Shown here: positions 19,456 through 58,155 of the stretch, one piece after another
How positions within the stretch are numbered: position 1 is the first letter of the stretch
Layout: each line of letters starts with the position of its first letter
NCBI GenBank assembly: GCA_038087875.1
Contig: CM075988.1
Coordinates: 18,540,001 to 18,604,000 of the forward strand
From: Malacoraja senta
Lineage: Eukaryota
Length of the DNA stretch: 64,000 nucleotides
Direction: 5' to 3'
Made by a program: the position numbers and the translations under genes
Notes under the pieces: model-generated
Told to the model about the DNA's origin: nothing
Database searches by the model: none
What the model saw: the letters and a program-made list of their open reading frames with translations, nothing else

Positions 19456-20292
19456 TGATTTGATTTTGATTTTGATTTGATTTATTTCTTGTCATTTGAA
19501 CCTCAAAGAGGCTCAAACGAAACTCTGTTTCCACAGCCATACAAACAAAACAATTCCTACAAGACACACAAACAATTCAATTTACAGAAAAACATCCATC
19601 ACAGTGAATCTCCTCCTCACTGTGATGGAAGGCAAAGTCTTTTCTCTCCCCTGCCCCATTTTTCTCCCGATGTTGAAGCCCCAGGCGGGCAATGTTAAGT
19701 CCCACGGCCGTTGAGGGCGCGCCGGGCGGTATACGGCCTCGCTCCGGGCCCAAAAGTCACAAAGTTGGAGCCCCGGCGGGCGCTGGATTTACGGCCCCGC
19801 TCCGGGTCGTTCCAACCCCGCGACTCGAGCTGGAGAAGTTGCGTTGCGGGAGCTCCGGAAAACGGTCTCTCACCCGGACCCGCGAACTCCCGATATCATT
19901 GTCCACAGGTCTGCAGCTGGAGCTCCGGAGTCGGGCCGCAGCAACGAGCCACCACCGCTCCCCGCGCTCCGAGGCCGGCCAGCCCCACGATGGTGAGTCC
20001 GCAGCTCCACAGGCTCCGCGACTGGAGCCCCCCAGGTCGTCCCGGTCGGAGGCCGCTCCACGGAGCTGGGCCCCAACGACAACGGAGACCCGACAGGGAA
20101 AAGGTCGGGTCTCCCGTGCAGGGAAGAGATTTTTAAAGTTTCCCCCTCCCCCCCCCCCCCCCGCCCCCCACATATACACAATTAAAACAGTACAAAAAAA
20201 ACACAAACAACTACATTTAACTAGACAAAAATTAAAAAAAAAGACAGACGGGCTGTAGGGGCCGCTGCAGTAATCCGCGCCGCCGCACACAC
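19456..20292 (-). mobile_element. GC-rich non-autonomous retroposon (copy 1; Rex1-like tail)
   Basis: 5-bp TSD ACTAT (19451-19455, 20293-20297); AATAAA + (AATCA)n tail on the minus strand; interrupts CR1 ORF2. Confidence 0.85.
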
Positions 20293-23054
20293 ACTATGTC
20301 CCCTAGTTCTAGTTTCCCCGATCATTGGGAACATCCTCGGTGCATCCACCCGATCAAGGCCCCTCACGATCTTATATGTTTCAATGAGATCGCCTCTCAT
20401 TCTTCTAAACTCCAAAGAGTAGAGTTCCAGCCTACTTAACCTTTCCTCATATGTCAATCCCCTCATTGCAGGAATTAATCTTGTAAACCTTCGCTGCACT
20501 GCCTCCAGGGCCAGTACATCCTTTCTTAAGTATGGACCCCAGAACTGTACACAGTATTCCAAATGTGGTCTCACTAATACTGTGTACAGCTGCAGCAAGA
20601 CCTCCGTGTTTTTATACTCAATCCCCCTAGCAATAAAGGCCAAAACTCCATTGGCCTTCCTGATATCTTGCTGCACCTGCATACTAACTTTTAGTGATTC
20701 ATGTACTACTACCCCTAGATCCCTTTGCGTTGCATTACAGCGCAGCTCCTCCTCATTTAGAAAATAACTTGCCCTATCATTTTTTTTCCCAAAGTGAATG
20801 ACTTCACATTTATTAGTATTAAATTTCATCTGCCAAGTTGTTGCCCACTCACCTAGCTTATCTATATCCTTTTGCAGACTCTTCCTATCCTCCTCATCCC
20901 CTACTTTTCTTCCCATTTTTGTATCGTCCGCAAATTTTGATATATTACACTTGGTTCCCTCCTCCAAATCATTTATATAAATTGTGAACAACTGGGGTCC
21001 CAGCACCGACCCTTGCGGAACCCCGCTAGTTACCGGTTGCCATCCCGAATATGAACCATTTATCCCCACTCTCTGCTTCCTATTTGTTAGCCAATCCTCT
21101 ACCCATGCTAATATATTACCCCCAATCCCATAATTTTTTATTTTTAGCAATAGTCTCTTATGTGGCACCTTGTCAAAAGCCTTTTGGAAGTCCAAGTATA
21201 CCACATCCACCGGTTCCCCTTTATCCACCCGGGTTGTTACTTCCTCAAAGAATTCGAGCAGATTCGTTAAACAGGACTTCCCCTTCACAAAACCATGCTG
21301 GTTCTGTCCGATGAAGTCATGTCTATCCAAGTGCCCCGTTAGTGTTTCTTTAATAATTGTCTCTAACATTTTACCCACCACCGATGTTAGACTAACCGGT
21401 CTATAGTTACCCGCCTTCTGTTTACTTCCTTTTTTAAATATAGGTGTTACATTGGCCAATTTCCAATCCACTGGGACCGTTCCTGCCTCCAGGGAGTTTT
21501 GGAAAATTATCACCAATGCATCCACAATCCCCACCGCTATCTCCCTCAAGACCCTTGGATGTAATCCATCAGGCCCAGGGGATTTATCCTCCTTCAGTCT
21601 CATTAATTTCCCTAATACCACCTCCTTGGTGATCTTAATAGTATTTAGCTCCTCCATTCCTACCGCCCCCTGTTTATCCAGCGTTGGAATATTTTTTGTG
21701 TCTTCTATGGTGAAGACTGATACAAAATACTCGTTTAATGCCTTTGCCATTTCCATGTTCCCCACCAACAACTCTCCAGTCTCACCCTCCAATGGACCAA
21801 CGTTCACCTTAGCCACCCTTTTTCTTTTTATATAGCTATAAAAACTCTTACTATTAGTTTTTATGTTGTTCGCTAAATTCCTTTCATAGTCTATTTTCCC
21901 CGTCTTAATTAATCTCTTAGTTATTTTTTGCTGACCTTTAAATGCTTCCCAATCCTCTACCCTCCCACTATCTCTGGCTACCTTATATGCCCTTGCCTTC
22001 AGCCGAATACTATCCTTTATAGTTTTACTGAGCCATGGCTGACTGTTCTTACCCTTACCCCTTTTTTTCTTCATAGGAATAAATTTTTTCTTGAAGGTTA
22101 TACAGTAGATCCTTAAACGTACACCACTGCTCATGTACCGTCTTATTCTTGAGTCTGCTATCCCAGTACTTTGATCAGCTCAGTCCTCATACCTTCATAA
22201 TCCCCCTTATTTAGACTAAGTACCCTAGCCTGAGTTTCAACCTGCTCCCCTTCTATTTGAATATGGAATTCGACCATATTGTGGTCACTTGTTCCCAACG
22301 AGTCCCTAACTATGACATTTTTAATTAATCCTGCTTCATTACACAGGACCAGATCCAAGATTGCCTCCCCCCTTGTCGGTTCTGTGACATACTGTTCTAG
22401 GAACCCGTCTCTAATACATTCTATAAACTCTTCCTCTAGTTTACCCTGCCCAGTTTGGTTTGCCCAATTAATATGAAAATTAAAGTCCCCCATGATTACA
22501 GCAGTTCCCTTTTTACATGCGTCAACTATTTGCAGATTTATGTTCTGACTAACAGCGTCACAGCTATTTGGAGGTCTATAAATTACACCCACTAGTGTTT
22601 TTTTCCCCTTGTTATTCTCTATCTGTACCCAAGCTGTTTCACTATCCTGATCCTTCAACGCAATATCCTTCCTCTCTATTGCCGTTATTCCCTCCCTTAT
22701 TAAAAGGGCCACCCCTCCTCCCTTTCTTTCCTGTCTATTTTTTCTAATTGTCGAGTACCCCTCTATATTTAACTCCCAGTCCTGATCCCCTTGCAGCCAT
22801 GTCTCCGTAATGGCCACGATATCATAACTATATATACTTAATTGCACCGTTAATTCATTTATCTTATTTCGAATACTCCGTGCATTTAGATACAGCACTT
22901 TCAGATGATTTTTACTACCCTTCCTTTCTGTTTTTGCCTCTTTTACATCTAGAGCTTTATCTTCACACATTCTGAATCCTCCTGTCACATTTTGATTTTC
23001 CGTTTCCCCACTGATACCCTGCTCTATTTCCTCTACCCCTGCCGTTATTACCAC
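20293..23054 (-). pseudogene. CR1 ORF2 (APE endonuclease + RT), frameshifted near 22080-22170 and split near its C-terminus by an insertion
   Basis: YLNARS, ITETW, GGGV, GDFN, SDHN (APE); SPGPDG, NYRPVSLTS, QHGF, PQGSVLGP, FADD (RT). The last codons continue at ~19270-19455. Confidence 0.92.
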
Positions 23055-23077
23055 CCTTGATACCTCCCCCCCGCTAC

Positions 23078-23586
23078 TTAGTTTAAAGACCTCTCTACTG
23101 CCCTAGTTATATGATTTGCCAGGACCCCAGTCCCAGCACCGTTCAGGTGAAGTCCGTCCTTACAGAACAGATCCCCCCTGTCCCAGTACTGGTGCCAGTG
23201 GCCCAAGAAACCAAACCCATTATTCCCACACCAGTCTTTGAGCCACGCATTCAGCTTTTTAATTTTACGTACTCTCGCCGATTTGGCCCGTGGCTCAGGT
23301 AGCAATCCGGAGATCAGTACCCTCGAGGTTCTGCTTTTTAATTTATTCCCTAACTGCTCAAACTCCTTCAGCAGATCCTCCTTCCTCGTCCTTCCTATGT
23401 CATTGGTCCCCACATGGACCACGACCACTGGATCCTCCCCCTCCCTCTGCAAATTTCTCTCCAGCATCGCAGAGATATCCTTAACCCTAGCACCGGGTAG
23501 GCAACACAGCCTTCGGGACATGTTCTGCTGGCCACAGAGAACCTTATCTACCCCCCGAATAATACTATCCCCTATCACAACGGTAG
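23078..23586 (-). pseudogene. CR1 ORF1 C-terminal SGNH/GDSL esterase-like domain (N-terminally truncated)
   Basis: VVIGDS, LPGA, HVGTND and DGLHLN blocks. Confidence 0.9.
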
Positions 23587-23653
23587 GAATCATGCAGCCA
23601 TTTTCTGCACAGATATCTCCAATATGACGAGATCTAATTTAGTGACACAGAAT

Positions 23654-23957
23654 CAGGGGCGGAAATCCGGGGGGGGGGGGGGACAGGGGGGGGACACGCG
23701 TTGAGAGGTGGGGGCAATCCCCCCCCCCCCATGTTTTGTAATCCGGGCCGATTGAAGCCCCACGAATCGGGTCGGACGAAGCTGCTGTTGCTGGAGTTCA
23801 CCAACCAGATCAGCTCCTGATGTTACCGTCCACAGGGCCCACGGCCGAAGCCTCGTATGTGTGTGTGTGTGTGTGCGTGTGTGAGTGTGCACATGCGCGC
23901 GCGCGGCCGCCAAGAAATTGTGTCCCCCGCATGTTTTGATAGCGATTTCCGTGCCTG
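23654..23957. mobile_element. hAT-type MITE (CAGGGGCGGAAA termini)
   Basis: TIRs CAGGGGCGGAAATC / GATTTCCGTGCCTG; both ends shared with 47865-48642. Confidence 0.8.
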
Positions 23958-25106
23958 GTGACACTGATTAAGGAATAAGATTAGCCAGAATAAAAAGGAT
24001 AATTCCACTCGAAGCGTAATCTTCACTTACGGTATGGTATGGAGGAACAGATTCCCTACGGTATCTTTGTAACAGTGTAGAATCACACCAACACATGCCC
24101 TTGGGCCCACAATGTCAGTGTTGAACATGATGGCAAGACAATCTAATCTCCTCTGCCTGCACATGATGCATATCCCTCCATTAGCTGCACATCCCAGCAC
24201 CTATCTATAAGCCTCTTAAAATTATATTAAAGCATCTGGGATCCTTTACAACTTTAATCATGCTTTATAAACACCACCCCCCCCCCCTCTAAACCACCAC
24301 CACAATCAGTCTGAAGGATCTCGCATCGAAACATCACCTATCCACGTTCTCAAGAGATGCTGCCTGACACGCTGAGTTACTCCACCACATTGTGTTCTCT
24401 TTTCGCCAATCAGTATTTCTATGCTGTGGCTATAAAGTGCGAGAATTACAAAACTTCCTCCATGTTCTAGCTTGTTAGCTTCTGCAGTCTTTGCTAGCAA
24501 CTTGATTGGGAGTAACTCAAGCAATGCCACGCCAGTACAGAATGTGGACCAGCTCTGTCAGTGGGACAATCAATGCAGGCCTTGAATGTATTAGGAGCTG
24601 CCATAAATGACAACTGCTGATGAAGTTAGTGACTGGAACAGACATGCAGACTGATGAGCCCCCTCCAGCTGTGTAGCAGGGCTCTGGCCGCCAGGTACCC
24701 TGTGGAGAAACTCAATCAAATGGCTTCCCCTGGGAGCAGGACATCTGCCCGTGTCACAGGAGGCACAGCCTCCGATACATCTGCTCGCAACATATTGTAA
24801 ACCAACGTACTCACACCAGCCAACATGACAAGTTACCACTCTAAGCTCCAAGTGACAGGGAAACAATTGTTATACCCATACCATTCTTGTTATCAGGCTT
24901 CTGAACGGACCTTCCATAAACTAGGATACAGCTCTTTTCTCCAAACTACCCCATTGCGGACATTGGACTTCTGCTCTGGAAACGTCTCGCTACAATGCTG
25001 AGAACTATATTCTGCACTCTGTATTTTTCTCTTCATGTTACCTATTGTACCTGAGTTTGGCTTGACTGTATTTGACTGTATTTATAGACGGTATTATCTA
25101 ACTTGA

Positions 25107-25737
25107 TGGTGGCGCAGCAGTAGAGATGCTGTCTAATAGCGCTGTCCCACGGTACGAGTTCATTCCAAGAGCTCTCCCGAGTTTGCCCTGATTCGAACTC
25201 GGAGATTTACGGTAATGTCCACTCGTTGGTACTCGGGGCTCTCGTGGACATTTTTCAACATGTTGAAAAATCTTCATGAATCTTCCCGTGCTTACCTGCC
25301 ATTAGTGAGTCTTCCCGAGTACCTGCCGTTAGCGATACGAGTCACGAAGGGACGTCCCCGAGCTCCGACGTACCCGCTACGTTCATTCTCCGTGCTTACC
25401 ACGAGTTTGATTTTTTTAAAACTCAGGAGAGCTCTTGGAATGAACTCGTACCGTGGGACAGGGCTTTTACAGTGTCAGAGCCCCGGGTTCGATCCTGACT
25501 ATGGGTACTGCCCGTACAGAGTTTGTACGTTCTCCCCGTGACCTGCGTGGGTTTTCTCCAAGAGCTCCGGTTTCCCCCCACACTCCAAAGACGTAAAGGT
25601 TTGTAGGCTAATTGGTTAGGTAAAATTGTAGATTGTTCCTAGTGTGTGTAGGCTGGTGCGCGGGGATCGTAGGTCAGCACGGACTTGGGGGCCGAAGGGC
25701 CTGTTTCCGCAATGTATCTCTAAACTCTAAACTAAAC
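25107..25737 (+). mobile_element. HE1-type V-SINE with a Harbinger MITE in its tRNA-like head
   Basis: Head split at 25136/25467; V-domain and tail follow. Confidence 0.85.
25137..25466. mobile_element. PIF/Harbinger-type MITE, family 3 (uninterrupted, 330 bp)
   Basis: ~48-bp TIRs; flanked by TAA (left) and TTA (right). Confidence 0.9.
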
Positions 25738-31007: not shown

Positions 31008-31870
31008 ATTTTAGTTTAGTTCAGAGACATAGCGCGGAAACTGGTCCTACAGCCCACCGAGTCTGCGTCGACCAGCAATCCCCACACACTAACACTAGCC
31101 TACACATGCTAGGGACAATTAAAGGGCCTGTCTCACTTGGGCGACCTAATCCGCGAGTTCTGGCGAGTTTGCCCTCGACTCATACTCGCAGCATGGTCGA
31201 CACGAGGTCGTAGGAGGTCTTCGTAACTCTCCTTCATGCTCGAGAGTGGTCACCGCGTACTCGAGGCCTCAGCGGTTTTTTCAATATGTTAAAAAATGCC
31301 CGCGAGTGAAAAAAGGTCGCCATGGGAAAAAATCGATACTTTTTTTACTCGTAGGTTTAGTCATAGTAGGTCGTAGTAGGTCGGTATGTTAGTCGTCGGT
31401 AATCGAGGGTAGTCGAAGGCAGTCGAAGGTAGTCGTAGATAGTCTTCATCATAGTCGAAGGGAGGTCGAAGAGAGGTCGAAGGAGATCGAAGGAGGTCGT
31501 CTTCACTCTCCACTATTCGGTGTCCAATTTTCCCGAAGTTAGTCGTAGCTAGTCGAAGCTGGTCTTCAACATAGTCGAAGGAGGTCGAAGGAGGTCTTTT
31601 ACATGGTCGAAGGAGGTCTTCAACATGTCATTTTTTCAAACTCTTCTGAACTCGCCAATTAGGTCGCCCAAGTGGGACAGCCCCTTTACAATGCTACTGA
31701 AGCCAATTAACCTACAAACCTGTAGGTCTTTGGAGTGTGGGAAGAAACTGGATCTCCCGGAAAACCCCCACACAGGTAACGGGGAGAATGTAAAACTCCG
31801 TACAGATAGCACCCGTGTTCAGGATCGACCCCGGGTCTCTGGCGTTGTGAGGCAGCAACTCTACTGCTGA
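31008..31870 (-). mobile_element. HE1-type V-SINE interrupted by a Harbinger MITE
   Basis: Consensus gggacaaTTTAca is split at 31122/31686. Confidence 0.85.
31123..31685. mobile_element. PIF/Harbinger-type MITE, family 1 (inverted relative to 885-1456)
   Basis: TIRs AGGGCCTGTCTCACTTGGGCGACCTAAT / ATTAGGTCGCCCAAGTGGGACAGCCCCT; flanks TAA and TTA. Confidence 0.9.
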
Positions 31871-33810: not shown

Positions 33811-35893
33811 TATTTTAGTTTAGACACAGCATGGAAACAGGCCCTTCGGTCCTCTGAGTCAGAGTGGACAGCTATCTGCAGAGCCAAAAGAGAAGGGGAG
33901 ATATTGAACAATTTCTTTTCTTCGGTATTCACGAAGGAGAAGGATATGGAATTATGTGAGGTAAGGGAAACGAGCAGAGTAGCAATGGAAACTGTGAGAT
34001 TCAAAGAAGAGGAGGTGCGGACACTTTTGAAAAATATGAAAACGGATAAGTCTCCAGGTCCTGACAGGATATTCCCTAGGACATTGAGGGAAGTTAGTGT
34101 AGAAATAGCAGGGGCTATGACATAAATATTTCAAATGTCATTAGAAACGGGAATAGTGCCGGAGGATTGGCGTACTGCGCATGTTGTTCCATTGTTTAAA
34201 AAGGGTTCGAAGAGTAAACCTAGCAATTATAGACCTGTTAGTTTGACGTCAGTGGTGGGCAAATTAATGGAAAGGATACTTAAAGATAATATATATAAGC
34301 ATCTGGATAAGCAGGGTCTGATTAGGAACAGTCAACATGGATTTGTGCCTGGAAGGTCATGCTTGACTAATCTTCTTGAATTTTTCGAAGAGGTTACTAG
34401 GGAAATTGATGAGGGTAAACCAGTGGATGTTGTCTATATGGACTTCAGTAAGGCCTTTGACAAGGTTCCTCATGGAAGGTTGGTTAAGAAGATTCAATTG
34501 TTGGGTATTAATGGTGGAGTAGCAAGATGGATTCAACAGTGGCTGAATGGGAGATGCCAGAGAGTAATGGTGGATGGCTGTTTGTCAGGTTGGAGGCTGG
34601 TGACTAGTGGGGTGCCTCAGGGGTCTGTGTTGGGTCCACTGTTGTTTGTCATGTACATCAATGATCTGGATGAAGGTGTGGAAAATTGGATTAGTAAGTA
34701 TGCAGATGATACTAAGATAGGTAGTGTTGTGGATAATGAAGTAGATTTTCAAAGTCTACAGAGAGATTTAGGCCATTTGGAAGAGTGGGCTGAAAGATGG
34801 CAGATGGAGTTTAATGCTGATAAATGTGAGGTGCTACATCTCGGCAGGACAAATCAAAATAGGACGTACACGGTAAATGGTAGCGAATTGAGGAATGCAG
34901 TTGAACACAGAGGGATCTAGGAATAACTGTGCATAGTTCCCTGAAGGTGGAATCTCATGTAGATAGGGTGGTAAAGAAAGCTTTTGGTGTGCTGGCCTTT
35001 ATAAATCAGAGCATTGAATATAGAAGTTGGGATGTAATGTTAAAATTGTACAAGGCATTGGTGAGGCCAATTCTGGAGTATGGAGTACAATTTTGGTCGC
35101 CTAATTATAGGAAGGATGTCAACAAAATAGAGAGAGTACAGAGGAGATTTACTAGAATGTTGCCTGGGTTTCAGCAACTAAGTTACAGAGAAAGGTTGAA
35201 CAAGTTAGGTCTTTATTCTTTGGAGCGCAGAAGGTTAAGAGGGGACTTGATAGAGGTCTTTAAAATTATGAGCGGGTTAGACAGAGTGGACGTGGATAAG
35301 CTTTTCCCATTGAGAGTAGGGAAGATTCAAACAAGGGGACATGACTTGAGAATTAAGGGACAGAAGTTTAGGGGGAACATTAGGGGGAACTTCTTTACTC
35401 AGAGAGTGGTAGCTGTGTGGAATGAGCTTCCAGTGGAAGTGGTGGAGGCAGGTTCGATGTTATCCTTTAAAAATAGATTGGATGGGTATATGGACGGGAA
35501 AGGAATGGAGGGTTATGGTCTGAGTGCAGGTAGATGGGACTAGGGGGAAGTATTTCTTTTTAATTTAAAAAAAAAAAATTGTTTTTAAATGTTCGGCACG
35601 GACTTGAAGGGCCGAGATGGCCTGTTTCCGTGCTGTTATGGTTATACATGAGTCCATGACGAGTCCAGCGATCACCTGAACACTAGTTCTATCCGATACA
35701 CTTTACAGAAGCCAATTAACCTACACACTTGTACGTCTTTGGAGTGTGGGAGGAAACCAGAGTACCCAGAGAAAGCCCACGTGGTCACAGTGAGAACGTA
35801 TAAACTCCGTACAGATAGCGCCCATAGTCAGGATCAAACCCGGGTCTCTGGCGCTGTAGGGCAGCAACTCTACTGCTGTGCCACTGTGCCGCC
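33811..35893 (-). mobile_element. HE1-type V-SINE split by a CR1 insertion (33811-33860 and 35649-35893)
   Basis: The SINE tail and body rejoin across TSD TGAGTC. Confidence 0.8.
33861..35648 (+). mobile_element. CR1 LINE family B, 5'-truncated, with a nonsense change and a frameshift
   Basis: TSD TGAGTC (33855-33860, 35649-35654); nearly identical to the reverse complement of 40334-42135; TAA at ~34123 and a 2-nt insertion at ~34908. Confidence 0.95.
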
Positions 35894-40447: not shown

Positions 40448-43393
40448 CTAGTCCCATCTACCTGCACTCAGACCATAACCCTCCATTCCTTTCCCGTCCA
40501 TATACCCATCCAATCTATTTTTAAAGGATAACATCGAACCTGCCTCCACCACTTCCACTGGAAGCTCATTCCACACAGCTACCACTCTCTGAGTAAAGAA
40601 GTTCCCCCTAATGTTCCCCCTAAACTTCTGTCCCTTAAATCTCAAGTCATGTCCCCTTGTTTGAATCTTCCCTACTCTCAATGGGAAAAGCTTATCCACG
40701 TCCACTCTGTCTAACCCGCTCATAATTTTAAAGACCTCTATCAAGTCCCCTCTTAACCTTCTGCGCTCCAAAGAATAAAGACCTAACTTGTTCAACCTTT
40801 CTCTGTAACTTAGTTGCTGAAACCCAGGCAACATTCTAGTAAATCTCCTCTGTACTCTCTCTATTTTGTTGACATCCTTCCTATAATTAGGTGACCAAAA
40901 TTGTACTCCATACTCCAGAATTGGCCTCACCAATGCCTTGTACAATTTTAACATTACATCCCAACTTCTATATTCAATGCTCTGATTTATAAAGGCCAGC
41001 ACACCAAAAGCTTTCTTTACTACCCTATCTACATGAGATTCCACCTTCAGGGAACTATGCACAGTTATTCCTAGATCCCTCTGTTCAACTGCATTCCTCA
41101 ATTCGCTACCATTTACCGTGTACGTCCTATTTTGATTTGTCCTGCCGAGATGTAGCACCTCACATTTGTCAGCATTAAACTCCATCTGCCATCTTTCAGC
41201 CCACTCTTCCAAATGGCCTAAATCTCTCTGTAGACTTTGAAAATCTACTTCATTATCCACAACACCACCTATCTTAGTATCATCTGCATACTTACTAATC
41301 CAATTTTCCACACCTTCATCCAGATCATTGATGTACATGACAAACAACAGTGGACCCAACACAGACCCCTGAGGCACCCCACTAGTCACCGGCCTCCAAC
41401 CTGACAAACAGCCATCCATCATTACTCTCTGGCATCTCCCATTCAGCCACTGTTGAATCCATCTTGCTACTCCACCATTAATACCCAACAATTGAATCTT
41501 CTTAACCAACCTTCCATGAGGAACCTTGTCAAAGGCCTTACTGAAGTCCATATAGACAACATCCACTGCTTTACCCTCATCAATTTCCCTAGTAACCTCT
41601 TCGAAAAATTCAAGAAGATTAGTCAAGCATGACCTTCCAGGCACAAATCCATGTTGACTGTTCCTAATCAGACCCTGCTTATCCAGATGCTTATATATAT
41701 TATCTTTAAGTATCCTTTCCATTAATTTGCCCACCACTGACGTCAAACTAACAGGTCTATAATTGCTAGGTTTACTCTTCGAACCCTTTTTAAACAACGG
41801 AACAACATGCGCAGCACGCCAATCCTCCGGCACTATTCCCGTTTCTAATGACATTTGAAATATTTCTGTCATAGCCCCTGCTATTTCTACACTAACTTCC
41901 CTCAATGTCCTAGGGAATATCCTGTCAGGACCTGGAGACTTATCCGTTTTCATATTTTTCAAAAGTGTCCGCACCTCCTCTTCTTTGAATCTCACAGTTT
42001 CCATTGCTACTCTGCTCGTTTCCCTTACCTCACATAATTCCATATCCTTCTCCTTCGTGAATACCGAAGAAAAGAAATTGTTCAATATCTCCCCCATCTC
42101 TTTTGGCTCTGCAGATAGCTGTCCACTCTGACTCTCTAATGGACCGATTTTATTCCTTGTTATCCTTTTGCTATTAATATAGCTGTAGAAACCCTTTGGA
42201 TTTACTTTCACCTTACTTGCCAAAGCAACCTCATATCTTCTTTTAGCTTTTCTAATTTCTTTCTTAATATTCTTTTTACATTCTTTATACTCCTCAAGCA
42301 CCTCATTTACTCCATGCTGCCTATAATTATTGTAGATCTCTCTCTTTTTCCGAACCAAGTGTCCAATTTCCCTTGAAAACCATGGCTCTTTCCATTTTTT
42401 ACTATTTCCTTTCAACCGAACAGGGACATAAAGATTCTGTACTCTTAAAATTTCACCCTTAAATGTCCTCCATTTTTCTTCTACATCCTTCCCATAAAAC
42501 AACATGTCCCAATTCACTCCTTTTAAATCCTTTCGCATCTCCTCAAAGTTAGCCTTTCTCCAAACAAAAATCTCAACCCTAGGTCCAGTTCTGACCCTCT
42601 CCATAATTATATTGAAACTAATGGTATTGTGATCACTGGACCCGAAGTGCTCCCCGACGCATACCTCCGCCACTTGCCCTGTCTCATTTCCTAACAGGAG
42701 GTCCAGCACTGCCCCTTCTCTAGTAGGTACCTCTATGTATTGCTGCAAAAAACTATCTTGCACACATTTTACAAACTCCAAACCATCCAGCCCTTTTACA
42801 GAATGTGTTTCCCAGTCTATGTGTGGAAAATTGAAATCTCCCACAATCACTACCTTGTGCTTACTACTAATATCTGCTATCTCCTTACATATTTGCTCTT
42901 CCAATTCTCGCTCCCCATTTGGCAGTCTATAATACACCCCTATAAGTGTTGCTACACCTTTCCCATTTCTCAGTTCCACCCAAATAGCCTCCCTAGACGA
43001 GCCCTCTAATCTATCCTGCCAAAGCACTGCTGTAATATCTTCCTTGACAAGCAATGCAACACCCCCACCTCTTGCCCCTCCAATTCTATCACCCCTGAAG
43101 CAACGAAATCCTGGAATATTTATTTGCCAATCACAGCCCTCCTGCAACCATGTTTCACTGATCGCCACAACATCATACTTCCAGGTGTCAATCCAGGCTC
43201 TAAGCTCATCCACCTTTCTTACAATGCTCCTAGCATTAAAATATACACATTTAAGAAACCCACCACCACTTATTCTCTGTTTATTATCTTTTTCTTCTTT
43301 CTCCCCTACATTTTGGGTCCGAGTGCTTCCCTTCTCTGCCTCCTGCCTCCCACATTTTACACTAGCTTTCTCTATTTGAGTCCCTCCCCCCAA
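40448..43393 (-). CDS. CR1 ORF2 polyprotein: APE endonuclease + reverse transcriptase (981 codons, uninterrupted; true start uncertain)
   Basis: YFNARS, ISETW, GDFN, SDHN; SPGPD, NYRPVSLTS, QHGF, YMDFSKAFDKV, PQGSVLGP, YADD, RGH. Confidence 0.93.
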   Translation of the reverse strand: MGGGTQIEKASVKCGRQEAEKGSTRTQNVGEKEEKDNKQRISGGGFLKCVYFNARSIVRKVDELRAWIDTWKYDVVAISETWLQEGCDWQINIPGFRCFRGDRIGGARGGGVALLVKEDITAVLWQDRLEGSSREAIWVELRNGKGVATLIGVYYRLPNGERELEEQICKEIADISSKHKVVIVGDFNFPHIDWETHSVKGLDGLEFVKCVQDSFLQQYIEVPTREGAVLDLLLGNETGQVAEVCVGEHFGSSDHNTISFNIIMERVRTGPRVEIFVWRKANFEEMRKDLKGVNWDMLFYGKDVEEKWRTFKGEILRVQNLYVPVRLKGNSKKWKEPWFSREIGHLVRKKREIYNNYRQHGVNEVLEEYKECKKNIKKEIRKAKRRYEVALASKVKVNPKGFYSYINSKRITRNKIGPLESQSGQLSAEPKEMGEILNNFFSSVFTKEKDMELCEVRETSRVAMETVRFKEEEVRTLLKNMKTDKSPGPDRIFPRTLREVSVEIAGAMTEIFQMSLETGIVPEDWRAAHVVPLFKKGSKSKPSNYRPVSLTSVVGKLMERILKDNIYKHLDKQGLIRNSQHGFVPGRSCLTNLLEFFEEVTREIDEGKAVDVVYMDFSKAFDKVPHGRLVKKIQLLGINGGVARWIQQWLNGRCQRVMMDGCLSGWRPVTSGVPQGSVLGPLLFVMYINDLDEGVENWISKYADDTKIGGVVDNEVDFQSLQRDLGHLEEWAERWQMEFNADKCEVLHLGRTNQNRTYTVNGSELRNAVEQRDLGITVHSSLKVESHVDRVVKKAFGVLAFINQSIEYRSWDVMLKLYKALVRPILEYGVQFWSPNYRKDVNKIERVQRRFTRMLPGFQQLSYRERLNKLGLYSLERRRLRGDLIEVFKIMSGLDRVDVDKLFPLRVGKIQTRGHDLRFKGQKFRGNIRGNFFTQRVVAVWNELPVEVVEAGSMLSFKNRLDGYMDGKGMEGYGLSAGRWD

Positions 43394-43398
43394 CCGTT

Positions 43399-43906
43399 CT
43401 AGTTTAAAGTCTCCCCAGTAGCCTTTGCAAATCTCCCCGCCAGGATATTGGTGCCCCTCGGGATCAAGTGCAACCCGTCCTTTCTGTACAGGTCACTCCT
43501 TCCCCAAAAGAAATCCCAATGATCCAGAAATTTGAATCCCTGCCCGCTGCACCAGTTCCTCAGCCACGCATTTATCCTCCACCTCACTCCATTCCTACTC
43601 TCACCGTCACGTGGCACAGGTAGTAATCCCGAGATTGTTACCTTTGTAGACCTTCTCCTTAACTCTCCTCCCAACTCCCTAAATTCTCCTTTCAAGACCT
43701 CTTCTCTTTTTCTACCTATGTCATTGGTACCTATATGTACCACAACCTCAGGCTCCTCTCCCTCCGATTTCAGGATACCTTGGACGCGTTCAGACACATC
43801 CCTGACCCTGGCACCAGGGAGGCAAACTACCATCCGGGTCTCCTGACTGCGTCCACAGAATCGCCTATCCGACCCCCTAACCATAGAGTCCCCTATTACT
43901 ATTGCC
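43399..43906 (-). pseudogene. CR1 ORF1 SGNH esterase-like domain (N-terminally truncated)
   Basis: IVIGDS, LPGA, HIGTND, DGLHL. Confidence 0.9.
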
Positions 43907-44149
43907 CCACCGTGCCCCACCCCAATATATTTGCTTTGCACATAGTCAATAATTCTGAAAAAAGTTAATTTATGGAATGAATAAAACAAAATAAATGTTC
44001 CCATTGAGGCCTGTCCAAAAAATATAGAACCTAGAACAGTGCTGCGCAAGAACAGGTCAGTCAGCCCACAATGTTTGTGCTGAACATGATGTTAAGACCA
44101 CTTCTTTGCTGCATTTGCATCCCTCCAAGTTGGCTTATTGGGCTGGTCA

Positions 44150-45149: not shown

Positions 45150-47050
45150 GTGCAAAAACATAATTAGTAAAGAAAGGCAAGGGAAGTTTGTTTAACTTGG
45201 TACTATGTTCGTCATGGACATTGTGGGCCGAAGGGCCTGTTCATGTGCTGTACTGTTCTATGTTCCACATTCCGTGTTAAGACGCAGCCTCCACTGACAT
45301 GTTAAAAACAAGAGCAATATATAGTCCGTAGTGTTCCATTGCTGAAGTACGGTTATAATAATAATGATAATGCATTTTGTTTGCAGGCGCCTTTCTGGAC
45401 ACCCAAGGACACCTTACAGGACATAAAATCACAATAAATTTATCAATATTAAATTTAACAAAGAAACATATGAACATATAATCAGAGTAAAATAAGTTAT
45501 AAAGACATCACAAATACATAAATTAAAAACAGAAATTTGATCCAAAGAAGACAACAACAAAATTCAGAAAACACAAGATGAAGGGAGAGCAGCGGCAGCC
45601 AAACCGCGCCAGCGTACACTCTCCCTTCCGACCGCCATGTTGGACATAGACTCACAGACTAACACAGACACTTAACACTACACACAAAATCATCCCCCCA
45701 CAATGGTTACCACTGTGGGGGAAGGCACAATGTCCAGTCCCCAACCCAGTTCTCCCCAGAGTCAGGCCCATCGAGGCCGCCACAGTTGCCTCTATGGAGG
45801 CCCGATGTTCCTGGCCGTCGGGAGAGTCCTCGCAGCGGCTGGAACGGCCGGTTTCCCAGCGGAGTCCGTGGCACCTGAAGCCGACAGGGCCGCGCCGATT
45901 TGGAGCCACGATTCGGAGCCACGAGGCTCCCGATGTTAAAGTCGGCGCCGCCGCCCGCAGCTGGTCGCTCCGCAGACCGGCAGCCCGGAGGTGTTGATCT
46001 CGGCGGTCATCGCATACCGGAGCACCAGCGCGTCGATCCAGCGCGGCGACCCAGGCAAGGCATCGCCCGCTACGCTCCACGATAGCGCTCCAGCGCTGTG
46101 CCGCCACCGAAGCTGAAGGTGCTGGGCGGTCCCCGTCAGGAAACGGCGCTCCATGCCCGCTGGTTGGCCACGAGGACGGGTCGACGGGGCAGCCCAGAGA
46201 AAAAGCTGCCTCACCGACCAGGTAGGGACCTAGGATATAATTACCCCATTCACCCTACACTTAAAAGTAGAATACTCCCACACACTAGACAATGGACACA
46301 CTAAAACTATTAAAAAAAGTGATTTAAACGGACGGCTGCTGGTTAGCAGCCGTTCCCCAACGTGACTCCTCCTCCGGTTAGTGTTATGTAGGTAGACACA
46401 AAATGCTGGAGTAACTCAGCAGGACAGGCAGCATCTCTAGAGAGAAGGAATAGGTGACGTTTCAGGTCGAGACCCTTCTTTAGACTGTAGGTTGTAGGTT
46501 GTAGATGTAGATTGGTTTAAGAACCTGATGGTTGAAGGAAAGTGACTGTTCCTGAACCTGGTGGTGTGGGACTTCATACTTCTGTACCTCCTGCCCGACG
46601 GCAGCAGTGAGTAGTGCAAAAGCATAATTAGAAAAGAAAGGCAGAAGAGGTTAATTTAACTTGGTATCATGTTCAGCATGGACATTGTGGACCAAAGGGC
46701 CTGTTCATATGCTGTACTGTTCTATGTTCGTAGTAAAAATAAGTCCATGGCAGTGAAATAGATAGTCCATTGTCTTCCATTGCTGAGGAGGGTTAATGTT
46801 ATGATGAAGGGTCTCGACCCGAGACGTCAGCTATTCCTTCTCTCCAGTGATGCCACCTGACCCGCTGAATTACTCCAACTTTTTGTGTCCATCATCGGTT
46901 TAAACCAGCATCTGCAGTTCCTTCCTGCACATTTAGTGTTATGTAGGTTGGTTCAAGAACCTGATAGTTGTAGGAAAGTAACTGTTTCTGACCTGGTGGT
47001 GTGGGACTTTCAAGCTTCTGCACCTCCTGCCCAACGGGAGCAGTGAGATG
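45150..47050. repeat. Old tandem duplication of a Rex1(-)/CR1-tail composite unit
   Basis: gtgcaaaaacataattag...ctatgttc at 45150-45266 recurs at 46614-46728, each followed by the same Rex1 segment. Confidence 0.7.
45356..46374 (-). mobile_element. GC-rich non-autonomous retroposon (copy 2; L2-like tail)
   Basis: 6-bp TSD CGGTTA (45350-45355, 46375-46380); tail GTAAGGTGTCCTTGGG...GAAAGGCGCC...(ATT)n. Confidence 0.82.
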
Positions 47051-47589: not shown

Positions 47590-48890
47590 TCGACAAGTCG
47601 AGTTGAGTTCATTGCCATCTGCACAGGTGCGGTGAAATACAGGTAGAGTGGAAACCTTGCATGTAGCAACATCACAGCCACATAGATTCAGACAACACCC
47701 AAAAACATCAAATATGCAGAAAACAGATTAGCTCTTCAAACCAATGAACGAAGATGACTGTGCAAGAAAAAATAAGACGTTAGTGCAAAAATACAGTTAG
47801 AAAGCAAGTCGCGATAGTGCAAGAGGTGGTACGTAGTGTTCCGTTACCGAGGTAGGATTAGGGTCAGGGGCGGAAAACCCGGGGGGGGGAGCAGAGGGGA
47901 CACGTCCCCTCCATGTTTTGAGAGGTGGGGGACATCCCCCCCAAGTTTTTGTGATCCGTATTTTAAAACCCGGTGAAATCTCCGCTTTCTGCGAGACAGT
48001 GGGGGTGGGACTGCTGATTGAGGGCGCCGATTGGACGAGAGAGACGTCGGTCAGCAGGCAATGGGGGCGGGACATGATAATTCAGCGCGATGATTGGAGG
48101 AGGGAGGGGGGGGGGAGTGGGACTGAGGATAGAGTGCGGTGATTGGAGGAGGGAGACGTGGCATAGACCTGTGCTTCATCCGCAGGCAGGATCGATCCCG
48201 GCCGGGTCACCGGCGCTGTCCCGTCCCCACCGAGTGCCCCCGCGGGTGGCCAGAGAGGTCAGCAGCAGAGATCCTTCGCTATAGGATCTTTGGTCGGTAG
48301 TCAGACCGGCGTGGTGCCCCCCAGGCCCACAGCCAGCCTAGAGAAGCAGCGCTAAACCAGGTCAACTCTGCCTGTCCCGCCAGGTGAACCTATAGCCCTT
48401 CCTGGACTTGCGGGAAATATGGCCAGCGCGGAGAAGCAGCGCTGGTGTCCCGTCAGTCCAGACAGGGCTGTAGTTAACCCCGTGAGACAGGCAGAGTTGA
48501 GCTGCATTTAGCGCTGGATTGAGCCTCCGAAGCAAAGATACTACCTCGCACGTGTGTGTGTGAGTGTGCGCATGCGCGCGCGGCCGCCAAAAAAATTGAG
48601 TCCCCCGTCCCCTCCATGTTTTGATAGCGAGATCCGCTCTTGATTAGGGTTGTGCGGATTGGTTCAAGAACTTGATGGTTGTATGAATGTAGCTGTTCCT
48701 GGACCTGGTGGCGTGGGACTTCAAGATTCTGTACCTTCTGCCCGATGGTAGTAGCGAGAAGAGGACGCAGCCCGGATGGTGGAGATCCTTGATGATAGAT
48801 GCCGCCACTCGAGGCAGTGCCCTGGTGTAGATGCTTTCGATGGTGGGGAGGGCTGTGCCCGTGATGTCTCAGGCTGAGTCCATGGGATAT
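47590..48890 (-). mobile_element. Rex1/Babar 3' fragment with a nested hAT element
   Basis: IIKDLHHPGCVLFSLLPSGRRYRILKSHATRSRNSYIHTTIKFLNQ remnant; UTR continues on the other side of the hAT. Confidence 0.75.
47865..48642. mobile_element. hAT-type non-autonomous transposon
   Basis: Perfect 8-bp TSD ATTAGGGT (47857-47864, 48643-48650); termini CAGGGGCGGA / TCCGCTCTTG. Confidence 0.88.
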
Positions 48891-48961
48891 CTGACATGGT
48901 AACAAAATAAGTCGTTGCTCATTTCAGATAGGGATGAGGAGCAAATTCTTCTCAGTCTGAT

Positions 48962-51905: not shown

Positions 51906-52009
51906 TAGACGAACCCCAGTTCCCATCTCTGTTGAGTACAGCGCACCAAATGCTCATGTATGTTTCAAGTCAAGTCAAATTTATTATCATAGACTGTTTA
52001 TTGTCATAG

Positions 52010-52298: not shown

Positions 52299-52779
52299 TC
52301 CATATGAACAACTGCAGTGAGGTATAGGTACAATGAAAACCTGGCTTGCAGCGCATCGCAGGGACATACACTCAGGCTGTGAGCTCCAAACCCCACTACT
52401 TGTTGGGTGGAAACACCTTTCCTCGCCTTTGGCCATGCTACCTGTTATCACAAGTCTTCAGCCCCTGGTTATTGAAGGGAAATAGGCTTTCCTTATTCAC
52501 CTTATTTAGTTCTCTCAACATTGTACGCAGCTCAATTCAAGCCTCCTCTTCTCCAAAGAAAGTAACCCTAGACTAGCTACACAGCCCCCAGCCCTGGCAA
52601 CCCCTGAGATCTCCTCTGCACCATTCCTGCTGCATTCTCATCCATTTATGGGTCGACTGTTACCAACACGACATCCTTTCTCTCACCACTGTCCGGGTGA
52701 CTGAATGCAACTCCCTGTGCCTTCTTCGCTGCGATACCCTGGGCAATATAAAACAGCTTTGCCGAGTTGTGTAGTATCA

Positions 52780-52990
52780 GTGTGTAGGAAGGAACTGCAG
52801 ATCCTGGTTTACATGGAAGATAGACACAAAATGCTGGAGTAACTCAGCGGGTCAGGCAGCATCTCTAGATAAAAGGAATGGGTGACGTTTCCGGTCGAGA
52901 CCCCTCTTCACCCGAAACGTCACCTATTCCTTTTCTCCAGAGATGCTGTGTGACCTACTGCGTTTTCCAGCTTTTTGTGTCTATCTTTGG
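52780..52990. mobile_element. Palindromic Penelope-derived element
   Basis: Inverted arms around ggtgacgtttc...gaaacgtcacc. Confidence 0.8.
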
Positions 52991-53239
52991 TGCAGTATCA
53001 GCGTTGGTTTATTATCATCACACGTTCTGAGATACAATGATAAGCTGTGTTTGCGCACCACCCAATCAATTCATACTACACATGAGTGCATTCATGCCAG
53101 AAGCAAGTACTACAGGTAGTACAACAAGCAGGAAGATACATGACAGCAGAATGTACTGTGACAGCATTATAGTGTTAGTTAGAGAGAAAAAGTGCAAGGG
53201 CCACACTGAGGTAGGTTGGAGAATCGGACAGTACCTTAA

Positions 53240-53540
53240 GGCAGCACAGTGACGCAGCGGTAGAGTTGCTGCCTTATAACCCCATAAACCCTGGTTCGAT
53301 CCTGACTACGGGTGCTGTGTGTATGGAGTTTGTACGTTCTCCCTGTGACCACGTGGGTTTTCTCCAGGTGCCCTGGTTTCCTCCCACACTCCAAAAAAGT
53401 AAAGGTTTATAGGTTAATTGACCTTGGTTAAATTGTCCCCAGTGTGTGGGATTGTGCTAGTGTATGAGTGATCACTAGTTGGCGTGGTTTCGGTGGGCCA
53501 AAGGATCTGTTTCCGCTCTGTATCTCTGAAGTCTAAAGTC
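53240..53540 (+). mobile_element. HE1-type V-SINE inside a Rex1 3' fragment (-, ~53005-53790)
   Basis: SINE homology; the flank reads CLGKAANIIKDPFHPGHFCFSPLLLGRRY. Confidence 0.8.
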
Positions 53541-54619
53541 TTATGGGCGGACCGTTTGTCAGTCTGTCAATAGCAGAGAGAAGCTGCTCCTGAATCTGGC
53601 GGTGCGTGCTTTCAAGCTTTAGTATCTTCTGCCCAACAGGAGTGGAGAGAAGCAGAAATGACCAGGGTGAAAAGGGTCCTTAATTATATTGGCTGCTTTC
53701 CCGAGACAGCGTGAAGTCATTGGGGGGGAGGAAGACAGGTCTGTGTGATGGACTGGGCTACAAGCACAACTCTCTGCAATTTCCATAAGCAATGAAGTCC
53801 TGTTGAGAGTCGTTGCAGTCATGTTATTCTTGTGTATTACTGCTAGCTCCAAAGACACAATTACTTGTCTGGCCACAGACAGAGACGGCATGTTAAATCA
53901 CAGCCTTGCTGTTCCCAGTCTCAATGACGACATGTATTTTTGGCTCATCTTCAGTGTAGATGAATGCTTTCGGATCCGATACTGATTTAGTGGGGAGGGG
54001 AGGAGCAGAATCTTCAGTGTTTCCATTTTAAAGATTGAGTTGAGGATTTATAGGGAATATAATTTAATGAGATGGATATATCTCAGTGACATAGGGCATG
54101 AAGGCTTGTGGTGCCCAGTCAGGGAGCATCAGGGGAATGAAGGTATGGATTAGATTTCAGCTCCCTGCCTTTTATTGAAGTTACATGGATAACAGGCTAG
54201 AAAGGCTACAAATAAAACCTCACCATCACCACAATTGGGATGAATTGCGAAGGGATAAGAGGCTGTTTGGCCCAATAAATCCATGCTGGCTTTTTGCCCC
54301 AGTCGACTGGCTTTATCTTGCACTAAAGGTTATTCACATTCTCATATGAATGAGAATGTGAATGACTCGATTATATTCTTACTGTCTTTCCGCCGACTGG
54401 TTATCATGCAACAAAAACTTTTCACTGTGACAATAAATTAATTAAGGGGATCATGACAGAGGCCTCCTCGTGGCGATCCCTGGAAGCGATGACGCGATGC
54501 ACTCTGTGATGCGTCGGGTGACAATTCTGTCAACATGTTGGACGACGGCAGAAGCCAACAGTGAACGACATCGTCTGACACATGAACGAACGAACTGAAT
54601 TAAACTGCTCCGGCATTGT

Positions 54620-55650
54620 CTCCTGTATTGCGTGCGGTTCTGGGCACCCCATTCCTGAAGGATGTGGAGGCTTTGGAGAGGGTGCAGAAGAGGTTTACCA
54701 GAATGCTGCCTGGATTAGAGAGTATGAGCTACAGGGCTCATGAGGTTGGGGAAATAGACAATAGACAATAGACAATAGGTGCAGGAGTAGGTCATTTGGC
54801 CCTTCGAGCCAGCACTGCCATTCAATTTGATCATGGCTGATCATCCCCAAGCAGTACCCCGTTCTTGCCTTCTCCCCATATTCCCTGACTCTGCTATTTT
54901 TAAGAGCCCTATCTAGCTCTCTCTTGAAAGCATCCAGAGAACCTGCCTCCACCGCCCTCTGAGGCAGTGAATTCCACAGACTCACCACTCTCTGTGAGAA
55001 AAAGTGTTTCCTCATCTCCGTTCTAAATGGCTTACCCCTTATGTGGATAGTTTTCTCTGGAGTGTCAGAGGCTGAGGGGAGACATGTTAGACACATATAT
55101 AACATTATGAGGCATCGATTTGGTAAACCGTCAGAACCTTTATCCCAGGATGGAAATGTCAAAGACTAGAGGACATAGTTTTAAGATCAGAGGGGAAATT
55201 TCAAGGAGACGGGTAGGGCTAATTTGTTGGGTGGTGCGTGCCTGGAACACACCACCAGGTGATGGTGGAAGCAGATAGGATAGTGATGTTCAAGAGGATT
55301 TTAGATAGGTACATGATGATGCAGGGAGCGGAGGGATTTGGATCATGTGCAAGTAGAGGAGATTAGGTTAAATAGGTTAGCTAAGGGAAGAGATTTGAAC
55401 TTTTTTTTCCGCCTTCCATCACAGTGAGGAATGTGGAGGAGTCACTGTGGTGGATGTTTATGTTAAAATGTATTTTGTGTGTTCCGTTGCTTTTTATTTG
55501 TATGACTGACTTGGCAAATGAAATTCCTCGTATGTTGCAAAACATACATGGCTAATAAAGTATTAATGAGATTGCGATTGTGATCATGTTCAGCACAGAC
55601 ATTGTGGGCCAAAGGGCCTGCCCCTGTGGTTTATCCCCTTCTATGTTCTA
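54620..55650. mobile_element. Old CR1 fragment (+) with a younger CR1 3' end (-, 54752-55040) and a GC-family 3' end (+, ~55390-55570) inserted
   Basis: KDVEALERVQKRFTRMLPGLE on +; IRGKPFRTEMRKHFFSQRVV on -; hairpin at 55415-55454. Confidence 0.72.
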
Positions 55651-56084
55651 TGTAAATGTACCAGCATTGCTCGCTATTCCCTGCTCTCGAATCCACTTGC
55701 CTGGTCACCACTTAACCGTACAAACTGTAGTCGTGTCAACTATTCCTTGTGGAGAAAGGTTCAACATTCCCACTACTTTGTGGTGAAAAAGATCCCTTCA
55801 GAGTAATGAGCACCACACTCTGACATGGTGAAATGTTAATAGAGAAATGCAAACCTGTCAAAAGAGTTCAGGCTTCACAAGTACACTCACTATCAGTTGC
55901 CTCTTTCATTCCAATTAAACTCACTTTAAGTCCTGGTACTGTAATATGACAGTGGAGTACCAGATTTCATTGTGGCATATTACCTTTAAAATCAAGCAGT
56001 ATCTGTGTGGAATGTTGATATGAGCAAGGAGGTTGGAAGGCATCAATCAGGTGGATTGATCTTAGAGTCATCGAGTCATAGAAT

Positions 56085-56610
56085 TATAGAAACATAGAAA
56101 CTTAGAAAAATAGGTGCTGGAATAGGCCATTCGGCCCTTCGAGCCAGCACCGCCATTCAATATGATCATCATTGGCTGACCATCTAAAATCATTACCCTG
56201 TTCCTGCTTTTTCCCCATATCCCTTGATTCCTTTAACCCGAAGCGCTAAATCTAACTCTCTCTTGACAACATGATACAGTGATACAGTGTCTTGATACAG
56301 TGGGGGAACAGGCCCCATCGGCCCAACGCCCACACCAGCCAACATGTCCCAGCTACACTAGTCCCACCAGCCTGCGGTTGGTCCATATCCCTCCAAACCT
56401 GTGCCTGTCCAACTGATTCTTAAATGTTGGGATAGTCCCAGCCTCAACTACCTCCTCTGGCAGCTTGTCCCATATACCCACCAACCTTTGTGTGAAAAAG
56501 TCACCCCTCGGATTCCTATTAAATCTTCTCCCCTTCACCCATGCCGTCTGGTCCTCGATTCCCCTACTCTGGGCACGAGACTCTGTGCATCTACCCGATC
56601 TATTCCTCTC
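56085..56610 (-). mobile_element. Two CR1 3' fragments
   Basis: (TTTCTATG)-type tail at 56085-56105; FFTQRLVGIWDKLPEEVVEAG. Confidence 0.72.
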
Positions 56611-56699
56611 ATTGTTAAGGGTTCCGCAGTTTGTGTTGCGTGCTTCAGGATTCTTTGCTGAATCAAACTTGTCATCAGAAGGAACCAGAGTTTCTCCAC

Positions 56700-58155
56700 G
56701 ACCTGCAGGTGCAGATGGTGAAGATGCCAGCGGGATCTCCCGGTTGACAAACCATGTTAACTCCACCTTCCCCATTCCCGTGCCGACCCTTCTGTCCTGG
56801 GCCTCCTCCTTTGCCCTAGTGAGGCCACACACAAACTGGAGGAAGGGCAGCTCATACAGCTTACACTCAAGGGTGTGAACGTTGATTTTGAAATTTCAAG
56901 TAATACCCCACTACCCCCTCTCATTTCCCCCACACCATCCCACGTGTCCTCCATCATCTCCCAGTCACCCAGCACCTTTTCTCTCTGTACATTCATCTCC
57001 CAACCCTAATCCCTTATTTATCCCTATCCCCCACTTCCCCCTTTCCCGTTCGATTTATATCCCTCCCACTGGCAATACATTTCACTCCCCTTCACTCCTT
57101 ATCTAACAGCCTTTGTCTCCTTTTACCTCTAGCTTTTCTCACCTACTCCACCTATCTGCCAATTTCATCTCCTCAACTGTATCCACCCATCACATAGTAA
57201 GTAAGTAAGTTTTATTTATATAGCACGTTTTAAATCAACTCGCGTTGAAACCAAAGTGCTTTACATAAAATAAATAATAAGTTTCCGTACATCCATAGAA
57301 AAAGATTTAAAAAAAAGAAAAATTGACACAACACAATTATAGAGTTCAACACAAACATCCCCCTACAACAGAATCAAAATTTTCCACTGTGGGGAAAGGC
57401 AACAAAAAGTTAAGTCCTCTTCCTCTGTGACCACCCGAGGTCGGGGCCCCTTTTGTGACCTCCGCAGCCAGTCCGATGTTTTCAGGCCCTCTTGCGTGAA
57501 GCTGGAACTCCGGCGTCGGGTGGACATTCCTCAGCGGCTTGGAAAGTCTGGAGCGCTGCCTCCTCCCCGGAGACCGCAGCACCCGAAGTCCTTAGGCCGC
57601 GCCGGTTGGAGCTCCGAGCCCGGCGATCTCGATCCCAAGCTCCGCGGTGTTCTAAATCTAGCGCTGCCCGCAGGCACAGCTCCTCGATGTTGGGAGTCGG
57701 CGGTCACAGCACTCCGGAGCTTACCGCACGGCGACCCGGTAAGGCATCGCCCGCTCCATGTTGGTGACCCAGCGCTGTGCCGCCGCCGAAGCTGTAGTCC
57801 CGGCCGGTCCCGATGGGGAACGCCGCTCCAGTCTCGATAGTAGGCCGCGAGGAAGGGGCGAAGAAGCAGCTCGGAGGGAAGCCGCCTCTCCGACCAGGCA
57901 GGGACTAGGAAATAAAGTTTCCCCCTTCCCCTCCCCCACCCACCACATAAAAGACCTCCAACTAACATTTTGTTTTTTAACAGGACTAAAAAATAAAATT
58001 AAAAAGGGAGAAAAGGCGGACATGCCAGGCTTTGCCCCGTCCCCACCTCTCTTTCCCAGTTTTCTCCCCCCACCCCCCATCCACTCCATCAGTCTGAACG
58101 AGGGTCCTGACTTGAAGCATCATCTGTCCATTCCTTCCTCAGATGCCGTCTGACA
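56700..58155 (+). mobile_element. Penelope-like element 3' part (GIY-YIG C-terminus + UTR), interrupted at 57196-58019
   Basis: HSRADPSVLGLLLCPSEATHKLEEGQLI...KGVNVDF remnant, pyrimidine-rich UTR, then a degenerate hammerhead CTGAACGAGGGTCCTGACTTGAAGC at ~58093. Confidence 0.75.
57196..58019 (-). mobile_element. GC-rich non-autonomous retroposon (copy 3; L2-like tail)
   Basis: Tail GTAAAGCACTTTGG...AAAACGTGCTATATAAATAAAA(CTTA)n; probable TSD ACAT; body similar to 45356-46374. Confidence 0.8.

Follow-up and report, generated by a model that had tools for sequence, protein, structure and literature searches.

Four GC-rich elements in a repeat-rich skate window

The window analysed here is a 64-kb stretch of the genome of the skate Malacoraja senta (contig CM075988.1, positions 18,540,001 to 18,604,000). 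It is rich in repeats, with CR1 and Rex1-type long interspersed nuclear elements (LINEs) alongside tRNA-type short interspersed nuclear elements (tRNA-SINEs). Among these lie three long copies and one 5'-truncated stub of a GC-rich element with two conserved hairpins (H1 upstream, H2 downstream) and a LINE-like 3' tail, which is real, well bounded and structured and is best viewed as a LINE-dependent non-autonomous retroposon. Our analysis is based on these four copies, on a contig comparison over 55330-58080 (4 runs, four organisms), and on one outside copy known from a spurious open reading frame (ORF). The elements and their parts are as follows, by position in the window.

19456-20292, minus strand: copy 1, 837 nt, full-length looking; interrupts a CR1 reverse transcriptase (RT) frame; target-site duplication (TSD) ATAGT
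20243-20292, minus strand: GC-rich 5' leader of copy 1, followed by T9, a T/GT-rich tract and a G-run
20084-20114, minus strand: H1 of copy 1, with a pyrimidine loop, 11/11 pairs
19634-20135, minus strand: CpG-rich body of copy 1, GC 0.66, observed/expected CpG ratio (CpG o/e) 0.96
19593-19633, minus strand: H2 module of copy 1, GCCTT-hairpin-TG
19456-19540, minus strand: tail of copy 1, a stem-loop and CAAAT-type repeats; resembles the Rex1-type LINE end at 10579-10638
45356-46374, minus strand: copy 2, 1019 nt; TSD TAACCG, read from the flanking letters
46183-46215, minus strand: H1 of copy 2, 10/11 pairs
45691-45726, minus strand: H2 module of copy 2
45575-45645, minus strand: extra inner module of copy 2, starting with AACATGGCGG and continuing into a long hairpin; resembles the 5' leader of copy 1
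45356-45433, minus strand: tail of copy 2, a stem with an internal loop and TTA repeats
57196-58019, minus strand: copy 3, 824 nt, most of the leader absent; TSD ATGT, read from the flanking letters
57860-57891, minus strand: H1 of copy 3, 11/11 pairs
57356-57400, minus strand: H2 module of copy 3
57196-57273, minus strand: tail of copy 3, a stem-loop and CTTA repeats
about 55372-55582, plus strand: stub, 5'-truncated, with H2, spacer and tail; sits in a CR1 3' end
55411-55456, plus strand: H2 of the stub

The boundaries are best defined for copy 1, whose flanks map to adjoining sites of two uninterrupted CR1 copies (61583-61791 and 7128-6921) that overlap by exactly 5 bp, the ATAGT duplication. 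The ATGT duplication of copy 3 is only 4 bp long and could be due to chance. For the stub, contigs from 4/4 runs connect 55366 or 55371 with 55583, corresponding to empty-site joints in related CR1 ends. In addition, a contig from another organism (run X5) crosses the joint between the stub tail and its unique flank (55522-55731), and the insertion is therefore probably shared between species. The 5' ends of copies 1, 2 and 3 lie 179, 159 and 129 nt upstream of H1, so that all three begin within 50 nt of one common point, and the 3' end of all four elements consists of a stem-loop with short tandem repeats (the stem-loop of the stub is no better than that of shuffled sequences). The coordinates proposed for the three long copies by an earlier sequence-only reading were exact, each copy being flanked by a TSD.

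No sign of coding capacity was found. None of five frames from the GC-rich bodies matches Pfam, copies 2 and 3 differ by frame-breaking indels, and none of the three long copies has an RT frame upstream of its 3' part, in agreement with the claim that no credible ORF exists. The translated body of copy 2 has no protein relatives of near or greater length; that of copy 1 has two matches, the spurious ORF of another copy and a 5146-aa protein at 31% identity. Nor was a tRNA, 5S or 7SL head found by ARAGORN or at Rfam gathering thresholds (0 matches each), in scans that also missed the tRNA-SINEs of the window; at E up to 10, Rfam returned only sub-threshold, unrelated matches. The reported absence of RNA polymerase III (Pol III) boxes was borne out, with an A/B box pair in 0/3 copies and in 10/10 tRNA-SINE controls. 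Each long copy has T-runs of 4-9 nt in its first 70 nt, with runs of at least four starting at nt 51, 56 and 6. Pol III is not expected to read through such runs, which would fit transcription by RNA polymerase II (Pol II). Neither an HDV-like ribozyme core (by descriptor or Rfam) nor a variable-number tandem repeat (VNTR) was detected, the best of the short internal self-matches being 17 nt.

The bodies are 502-519 bp long, with 64-67% GC and CpG o/e of 0.95-0.97, and account for 3/6 of the CpG-island-like segments of the window. The tRNA-SINEs here likewise retain CpG (o/e 0.73-1.02), so the CpG content of the bodies does not prove that they are unmethylated or act as promoters.

The elements thus have the features of LINE-dependent non-autonomous retroposons: a TSD, a 3' end of tandem repeats, no ORF and, in copy 1 and the stub, a tail shared with a LINE. 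Together with the shared hairpins, these observations uphold the description of discrete non-coding, non-tRNA retroposons with a common structured core and differing LINE-type tails.

Over 55330-58080, summed contig depth in the four runs is ~36-118 in the single-copy flank. Relative to this flank, the depth in 4/4 runs is ~300-18,000x over the copy 3 body and ~20,000-54,000x over the stub, ratios that are not copy numbers; all four organisms carry highly repeated copy-3-like and stub-like DNA. The depth is uneven, with the 5' body block and H2 above the mid-body, and among the 32 pieces listed of ~588,000, some contigs match the tail and H2 and then depart from the reference near the 5' edge of H2. 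This glimpse fits many subfamilies with frequent truncation near H2. Elsewhere, an unrelated public contig contains the spurious ORF mentioned above, which is collinear with the copy 1 body as far as H2. A long H2 pattern had no matches in metagenome contigs, and pattern scans of viral contigs gave none either. Matches of a degenerate pattern at 4 metagenome and 8 prokaryote-genome loci are all attributed to chance, because 8 of the 12 are named prokaryotic records and most of the 12 lack the H2 stem, two folding partly. According to PMC13343379, Rex1 coverage in rays is among the highest. The supplement of this paper contains none of the three H2 motifs; the paper's consensus sequences reside in an outside archive.

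Conserved hairpins in divergent bodies

The most constant part of the elements is H2, which consists of GCCTT, a 13-bp stem and TG. Across the four sequences, 52/52 stem cells are paired and 3/13 pairs are altered on both sides; 9/500 shuffles are equally good, and slid controls pair at 36-62%. The motif GCCTTYCMYCACAGTG, derived from these same four copies, occurs 4 times in the window, once per element, with 0 occurrences expected by chance. When the window was searched with an H2 covariance model, no additional copy emerged; the matches were the 4 training copies, 3 reverse-strand echoes and 7 with E ≥ 0.3. All three long copies have H1, whose 11-bp stem encloses a pyrimidine loop, upstream of H2 at a nearly constant distance (481/489/491 nt), and 3/11 of its pairs differ on both sides between copies 1 and 3. 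Comparable stems begin at 24/1416 body positions. The H2 stems are of two types, CCATCAC in copy 1 and the stub and CCCCCAC in copies 2 and 3. An ATG is found at the base of H2 in 4/4 copies (as GGATG; 55411-55500, 19540-19633, 45640-45726 and 57300-57400), and the short frames that follow are dissimilar by eye. Compared with 25 shuffles each, folding of the bodies gave z -5.1, -5.9 and -1.5 for copies 1, 2 and 3, the first two thus being more stably folded than their shuffles. The architecture earlier ascribed to all copies therefore stands for the GCCTT-hairpin module in 4/4 and for the upstream hairpin in the three long copies; it fits less well where the G-run of copy 2 is weak, where copy 2 carries an additional module of ~190 nt, and in the stub, which has no body.

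In their sequences, copies 2 and 3 are clearly homologous, with 75% identity across 216 bp in BLAST and z ~20 over dinucleotide shuffles for the bodies. Copy 1 and the stub are 81% identical across 75 bp of their hairpin regions. By the same measures, copy 1 appears to be only a remote relative of copies 2 and 3: its body scores z 5.2 and 5.1 against them (0/500 shuffles), its 5' block z 4.7-5.0 (0.3 in the reverse-complement controls), and its sole BLAST match to copy 3 is the 32-bp G-run junction (87.5%). Because H1 and H2 are retained while the sequence similarity of copy 1 is near background, we assign the long copies and the stub to one group with at least three divergent families, for which structure is more decisive than sequence.

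Tails and partner LINEs

The window contains two LINEs that are candidate partners of copy 1 and the stub. Both have C-termini that are presumed to be Rex1-type, and the LINE at 9380-10660 carries RVT_1 and PF09004. A link between DUF1891 and Rex1 is likewise presumed; we sought it in print and did not find it.

9380-10660, plus strand: candidate partner of copy 1, a truncated Rex1-type LINE (RVT_1, PF09004) with a 173-nt 3' untranslated region (3'UTR) without H2
1-381, plus strand: candidate partner of the stub, a Rex1-type LINE 3' end, comprising the RT C-terminus and a 142-nt 3'UTR without H2

The terminal 60 nt of copy 1 resemble one of the LINE ends, 10579-10638 (z 5.0, 0/1000 shuffles), and do not match 322-381. 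The stub tail shows the opposite preference, matching 322-381 (z 7.8, 0/1000 shuffles) and also 5669-5728 (z 4.0), with no match to 10579-10638. Both tail assignments of the sequence-only reading, a Rex1-like tail for copy 1 and a match of the stub tail to the LINE tail near 345-381, were thereby borne out. The two tails are unrelated to each other (z 0.6), despite hairpin regions that are 81% alike, and the RT C-termini of the two LINEs are only 50% identical. The four Rex1-type 3'UTRs that could be traced to their tails (4 of the 8 listed) are 142-221 nt long, have 32-36% GC and lack H2. Since similar hairpin regions are here joined to tails that match two far-apart LINEs without H2 in their short 3'UTRs, the combination is best explained by tail exchange.

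The tails of copies 2 and 3 are presumed to be L2-type from a resemblance in sequence; the window contains no L2 with an RT. Both fold into stems with internal loops, which fits the stems with internal loops and repeats described for L2 tails (PMC1636434). Copy 2 has a further peculiarity after H2, where its inner module resembles the copy 1 leader (z 5.2, 0/1000, in 1 of 3 comparisons). This resemblance suggests that copy 2 likely gained its tail through fusion with a second short unit of leader plus tail. The module's starting motif, AACATGGCGG, is presumably a YY1-type site.

Several other repeats occur in the window. Two related non-autonomous repeats with CAGGGGCGGA ends lie at 23655-23950 and 47865-48640, and we assume them to be DNA-transposon-like. 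The first interrupts a CR1 ORF1, and ~115 bp of it (23735-23855) resemble the mid-body of copy 1 (z 7.9, 0/500). This segment is perhaps a captured piece, and its presence in a different repeat indicates that body pieces do move. At 60600-60990, a GC-rich stretch is followed by a Rex1-type tail; the stretch (60600-60880) is unrelated to the copy bodies (z 0.7 or less), and the whole may represent a further Rex1-tailed family of non-autonomous elements. Palindromic CpG-rich repeats that have terminal inverted repeats, resembling miniature inverted-repeat transposable elements, occur at 4680-5180, 881-1460 and 31119-31689. Finally, a near-intact CR1 at 40448-44091 (1014-aa ORF2 frame with an ORF1 frame upstream) has a 98% identical truncated copy at 33856-35646, a sign of recent CR1 activity.

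Origin of the elements and comparison with known systems

We consider it fairly probable that the copies are divergent families of one headless, non-coding retroposon group, copied by partner LINEs and exchanging tails behind H2. The element would comprise a CpG-rich body bracketed by H1 and H2 and a LINE-like 3' tail, with no small-RNA head. It would be transcribed by Pol II from its GC-rich 5' part, and the tail it carries would recruit the RT of the partner LINE for target-primed reverse transcription. Tails could be replaced downstream of H2 via template switching or recombination, and H2 itself may be an RNA element required with any partner, perhaps as a pause site for the RT. More tentatively, and with greater doubt than confidence, we suggest an undescribed Pol II-driven headless superfamily of cartilaginous fish. 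In this wider proposal, a body of non-LINE origin and a two-hairpin RNA that outlasts sequence identity would have moved repeatedly between Rex1 lineages and L2 by tail swaps behind the hairpin, seeding thousands of CpG-island-sized segments.

Several observations weigh against this explanation. Only four copies were observed whole, the stub among them having no body, and the H1/H2 landmarks and search patterns were picked only after the copies and their alignment had been viewed. The identity of the copy 1 body to copies 2 and 3 (0.65 and 0.64) equals that of shuffled sequences (0.64), an nhmmer profile built from copies 2 and 3 misses copy 1 (E above 10), and reverse-complement controls over whole bodies reach z 2.6-3.8. 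With copy 1 at the shuffled level, the single family of the sequence-only reading was an overstatement, sound for the homology of copies 2 and 3 (z ~20) and, remotely, for that of copy 1 (z ~5). As for the tails, copy 2 and copy 3 show a weak mutual similarity there (z 1.9-2.7), and their tails match none of the four Rex1-type ends and no LINE in the window. Hairpin type and tail class are concordant in the four copies (Rex1-type tails on copy 1 and the stub, another class on copies 2 and 3), and none of the four provides an instance of one young body carrying two tail classes. Because hairpin type tracks tail class, the switch between classes may have happened once, as a single old event. Of the several partner switches and interchangeable tails that had been claimed, one or more exchanges between two tails of Rex1 type are supported, and free interchangeability is not.

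The alternative that survives best, unlikely but deserving attention, keeps the same mechanism and derives the body from a LINE: the copies would be bipartite internal-deletion derivatives of ORF1-less Rex1 and L2 LINEs, in which leader, body and H2 represent a long 5'UTR fused to the 3'UTR, with some later tail exchange. Rex1 and chondrichthyan L2 indeed lack ORF1, and some bear subunits of 100-500 bp near the 5'UTR (PMC13343379); Pol II transcription is expected for bipartite LINEs (PMC5786205); and the stretch after H2 (~125-160 nt in copies 1 and 3 and the stub) is similar in length to the Rex1-type 3'UTRs of the window. However, in PMC5786205 ORF-less bipartite LINEs are reported from RTE, Ingi, Vingi and R2 only, and one homologous 5'UTR would need to be common to two Rex1 lineages and a further LINE class. 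The failure to find the copy 2 body translation within any longer protein argues weakly in the same direction. No full-length Rex1 or L2 element is present in the window.

It is improbable that the copies are autonomous LINEs, each truncated at its 5' end and having an exceptionally long GC-rich 3'UTR. Truncated LINEs likewise show TSDs and tails of this kind, and the stub family, which is very abundant, could represent the 3' end of a Rex1; in the little skate, Rex1 makes up 6.6% of the genome (PMC13343379, supplement). Yet the three long copies share a start point and none reaches an RT frame. Moreover, the sequence-only reading's own alternative, the long 3'UTR of a copy's own LINE, is weakened by the short, AT-rich, H2-free 3'UTRs of the tail-matching LINEs in the window, and a 3'UTR common to different LINE classes would itself require exchange. 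Least probable of all is that copy 1 with the stub and copies 2 with 3 are unrelated families sharing only a small captured hairpin module, a view favoured by the profile search, the shuffle-level identity and the copy-1-like piece inside the repeat at 23735-23855 and opposed by the two equally spaced hairpins whose pairs have changed on both sides, the G-run junction common to copies 1 and 3, and the strand-specific collinear score.

We found no description of such an element in cartilaginous fish in a literature search that did not extend to Repbase, Dfam, subscription journals or the outside archive of PMC13343379, and the families may already be present in Repbase or Dfam, unnamed or mislabelled. 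If the headless group favoured above is real, it would allow one to test what a parasitic RNA requires beyond its tail and where SINE 'bodies' originate. Since the elements make up half of the CpG-island-like segments of the window, the annotation of promoters and methylation in the genomes of skates and rays could also be affected.

Tail exchange, GC-rich heads of obscure origin and bipartite LINEs have all been described before (PMC5786205, PMC7245038, PMC4844689). Like the CORE-, V-, Deu- and Ceph-SINEs (PMC5786205), the skate elements are non-coding and LINE-dependent, with a conserved middle and replaced 3' tails; unlike them, they have no tRNA, 5S or 7SL head and no Pol III boxes, contain early T-runs and measure 824-1019 nt. 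They also differ from the SINEBase definition (PMC3531059), which specifies less than 700 bp, a tRNA/5S/7SL head and an internal Pol III promoter; for its threshold of at least 100 dispersed copies, our data consist of the depth of copy 3 and the stub in 4/4 runs, which is not a copy count. BuceSINE and ManaSINE2, described as potential SINEs (PMC4844689), similarly combine a GC-rich 5' part of obscure origin with a LINE-derived tail, but their tails are bipartite RTE, whereas here the tails are Rex1-type and of a second class, and the GC-rich part spans ~500 nt with two conserved hairpins. RIME, NARTc, RTESINE and WALLSI3 (PMC5786205) share the lack of an ORF, presumed Pol II transcription and a LINE 3' end; in the skate elements, the 5' part is common to different tail types, and its origin from a partner is only a candidate. 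Bipartite ORF-less LINEs of the RTE, Ingi, Vingi and R2 groups often have a 5' HDV-like ribozyme, in contrast to the Rex1-type tails without an HDV-like core seen here. SVA and LAVA (PMC5174737) are also long, modular, non-autonomous and non-coding, but the skate elements have neither a VNTR nor poly(A) and are not L1-type; their structured tails belong to the stringent type known from UnaL2/UnaSINE (PMC1636434). Tail exchange is known from Pol III SINEs, and headless non-autonomous derivatives of LINEs are reported from RTE, Ingi, Vingi and R2 only; a headless group associated with Rex1 and apparently L2, its hairpins maintained through compensatory change, would widen both rules.

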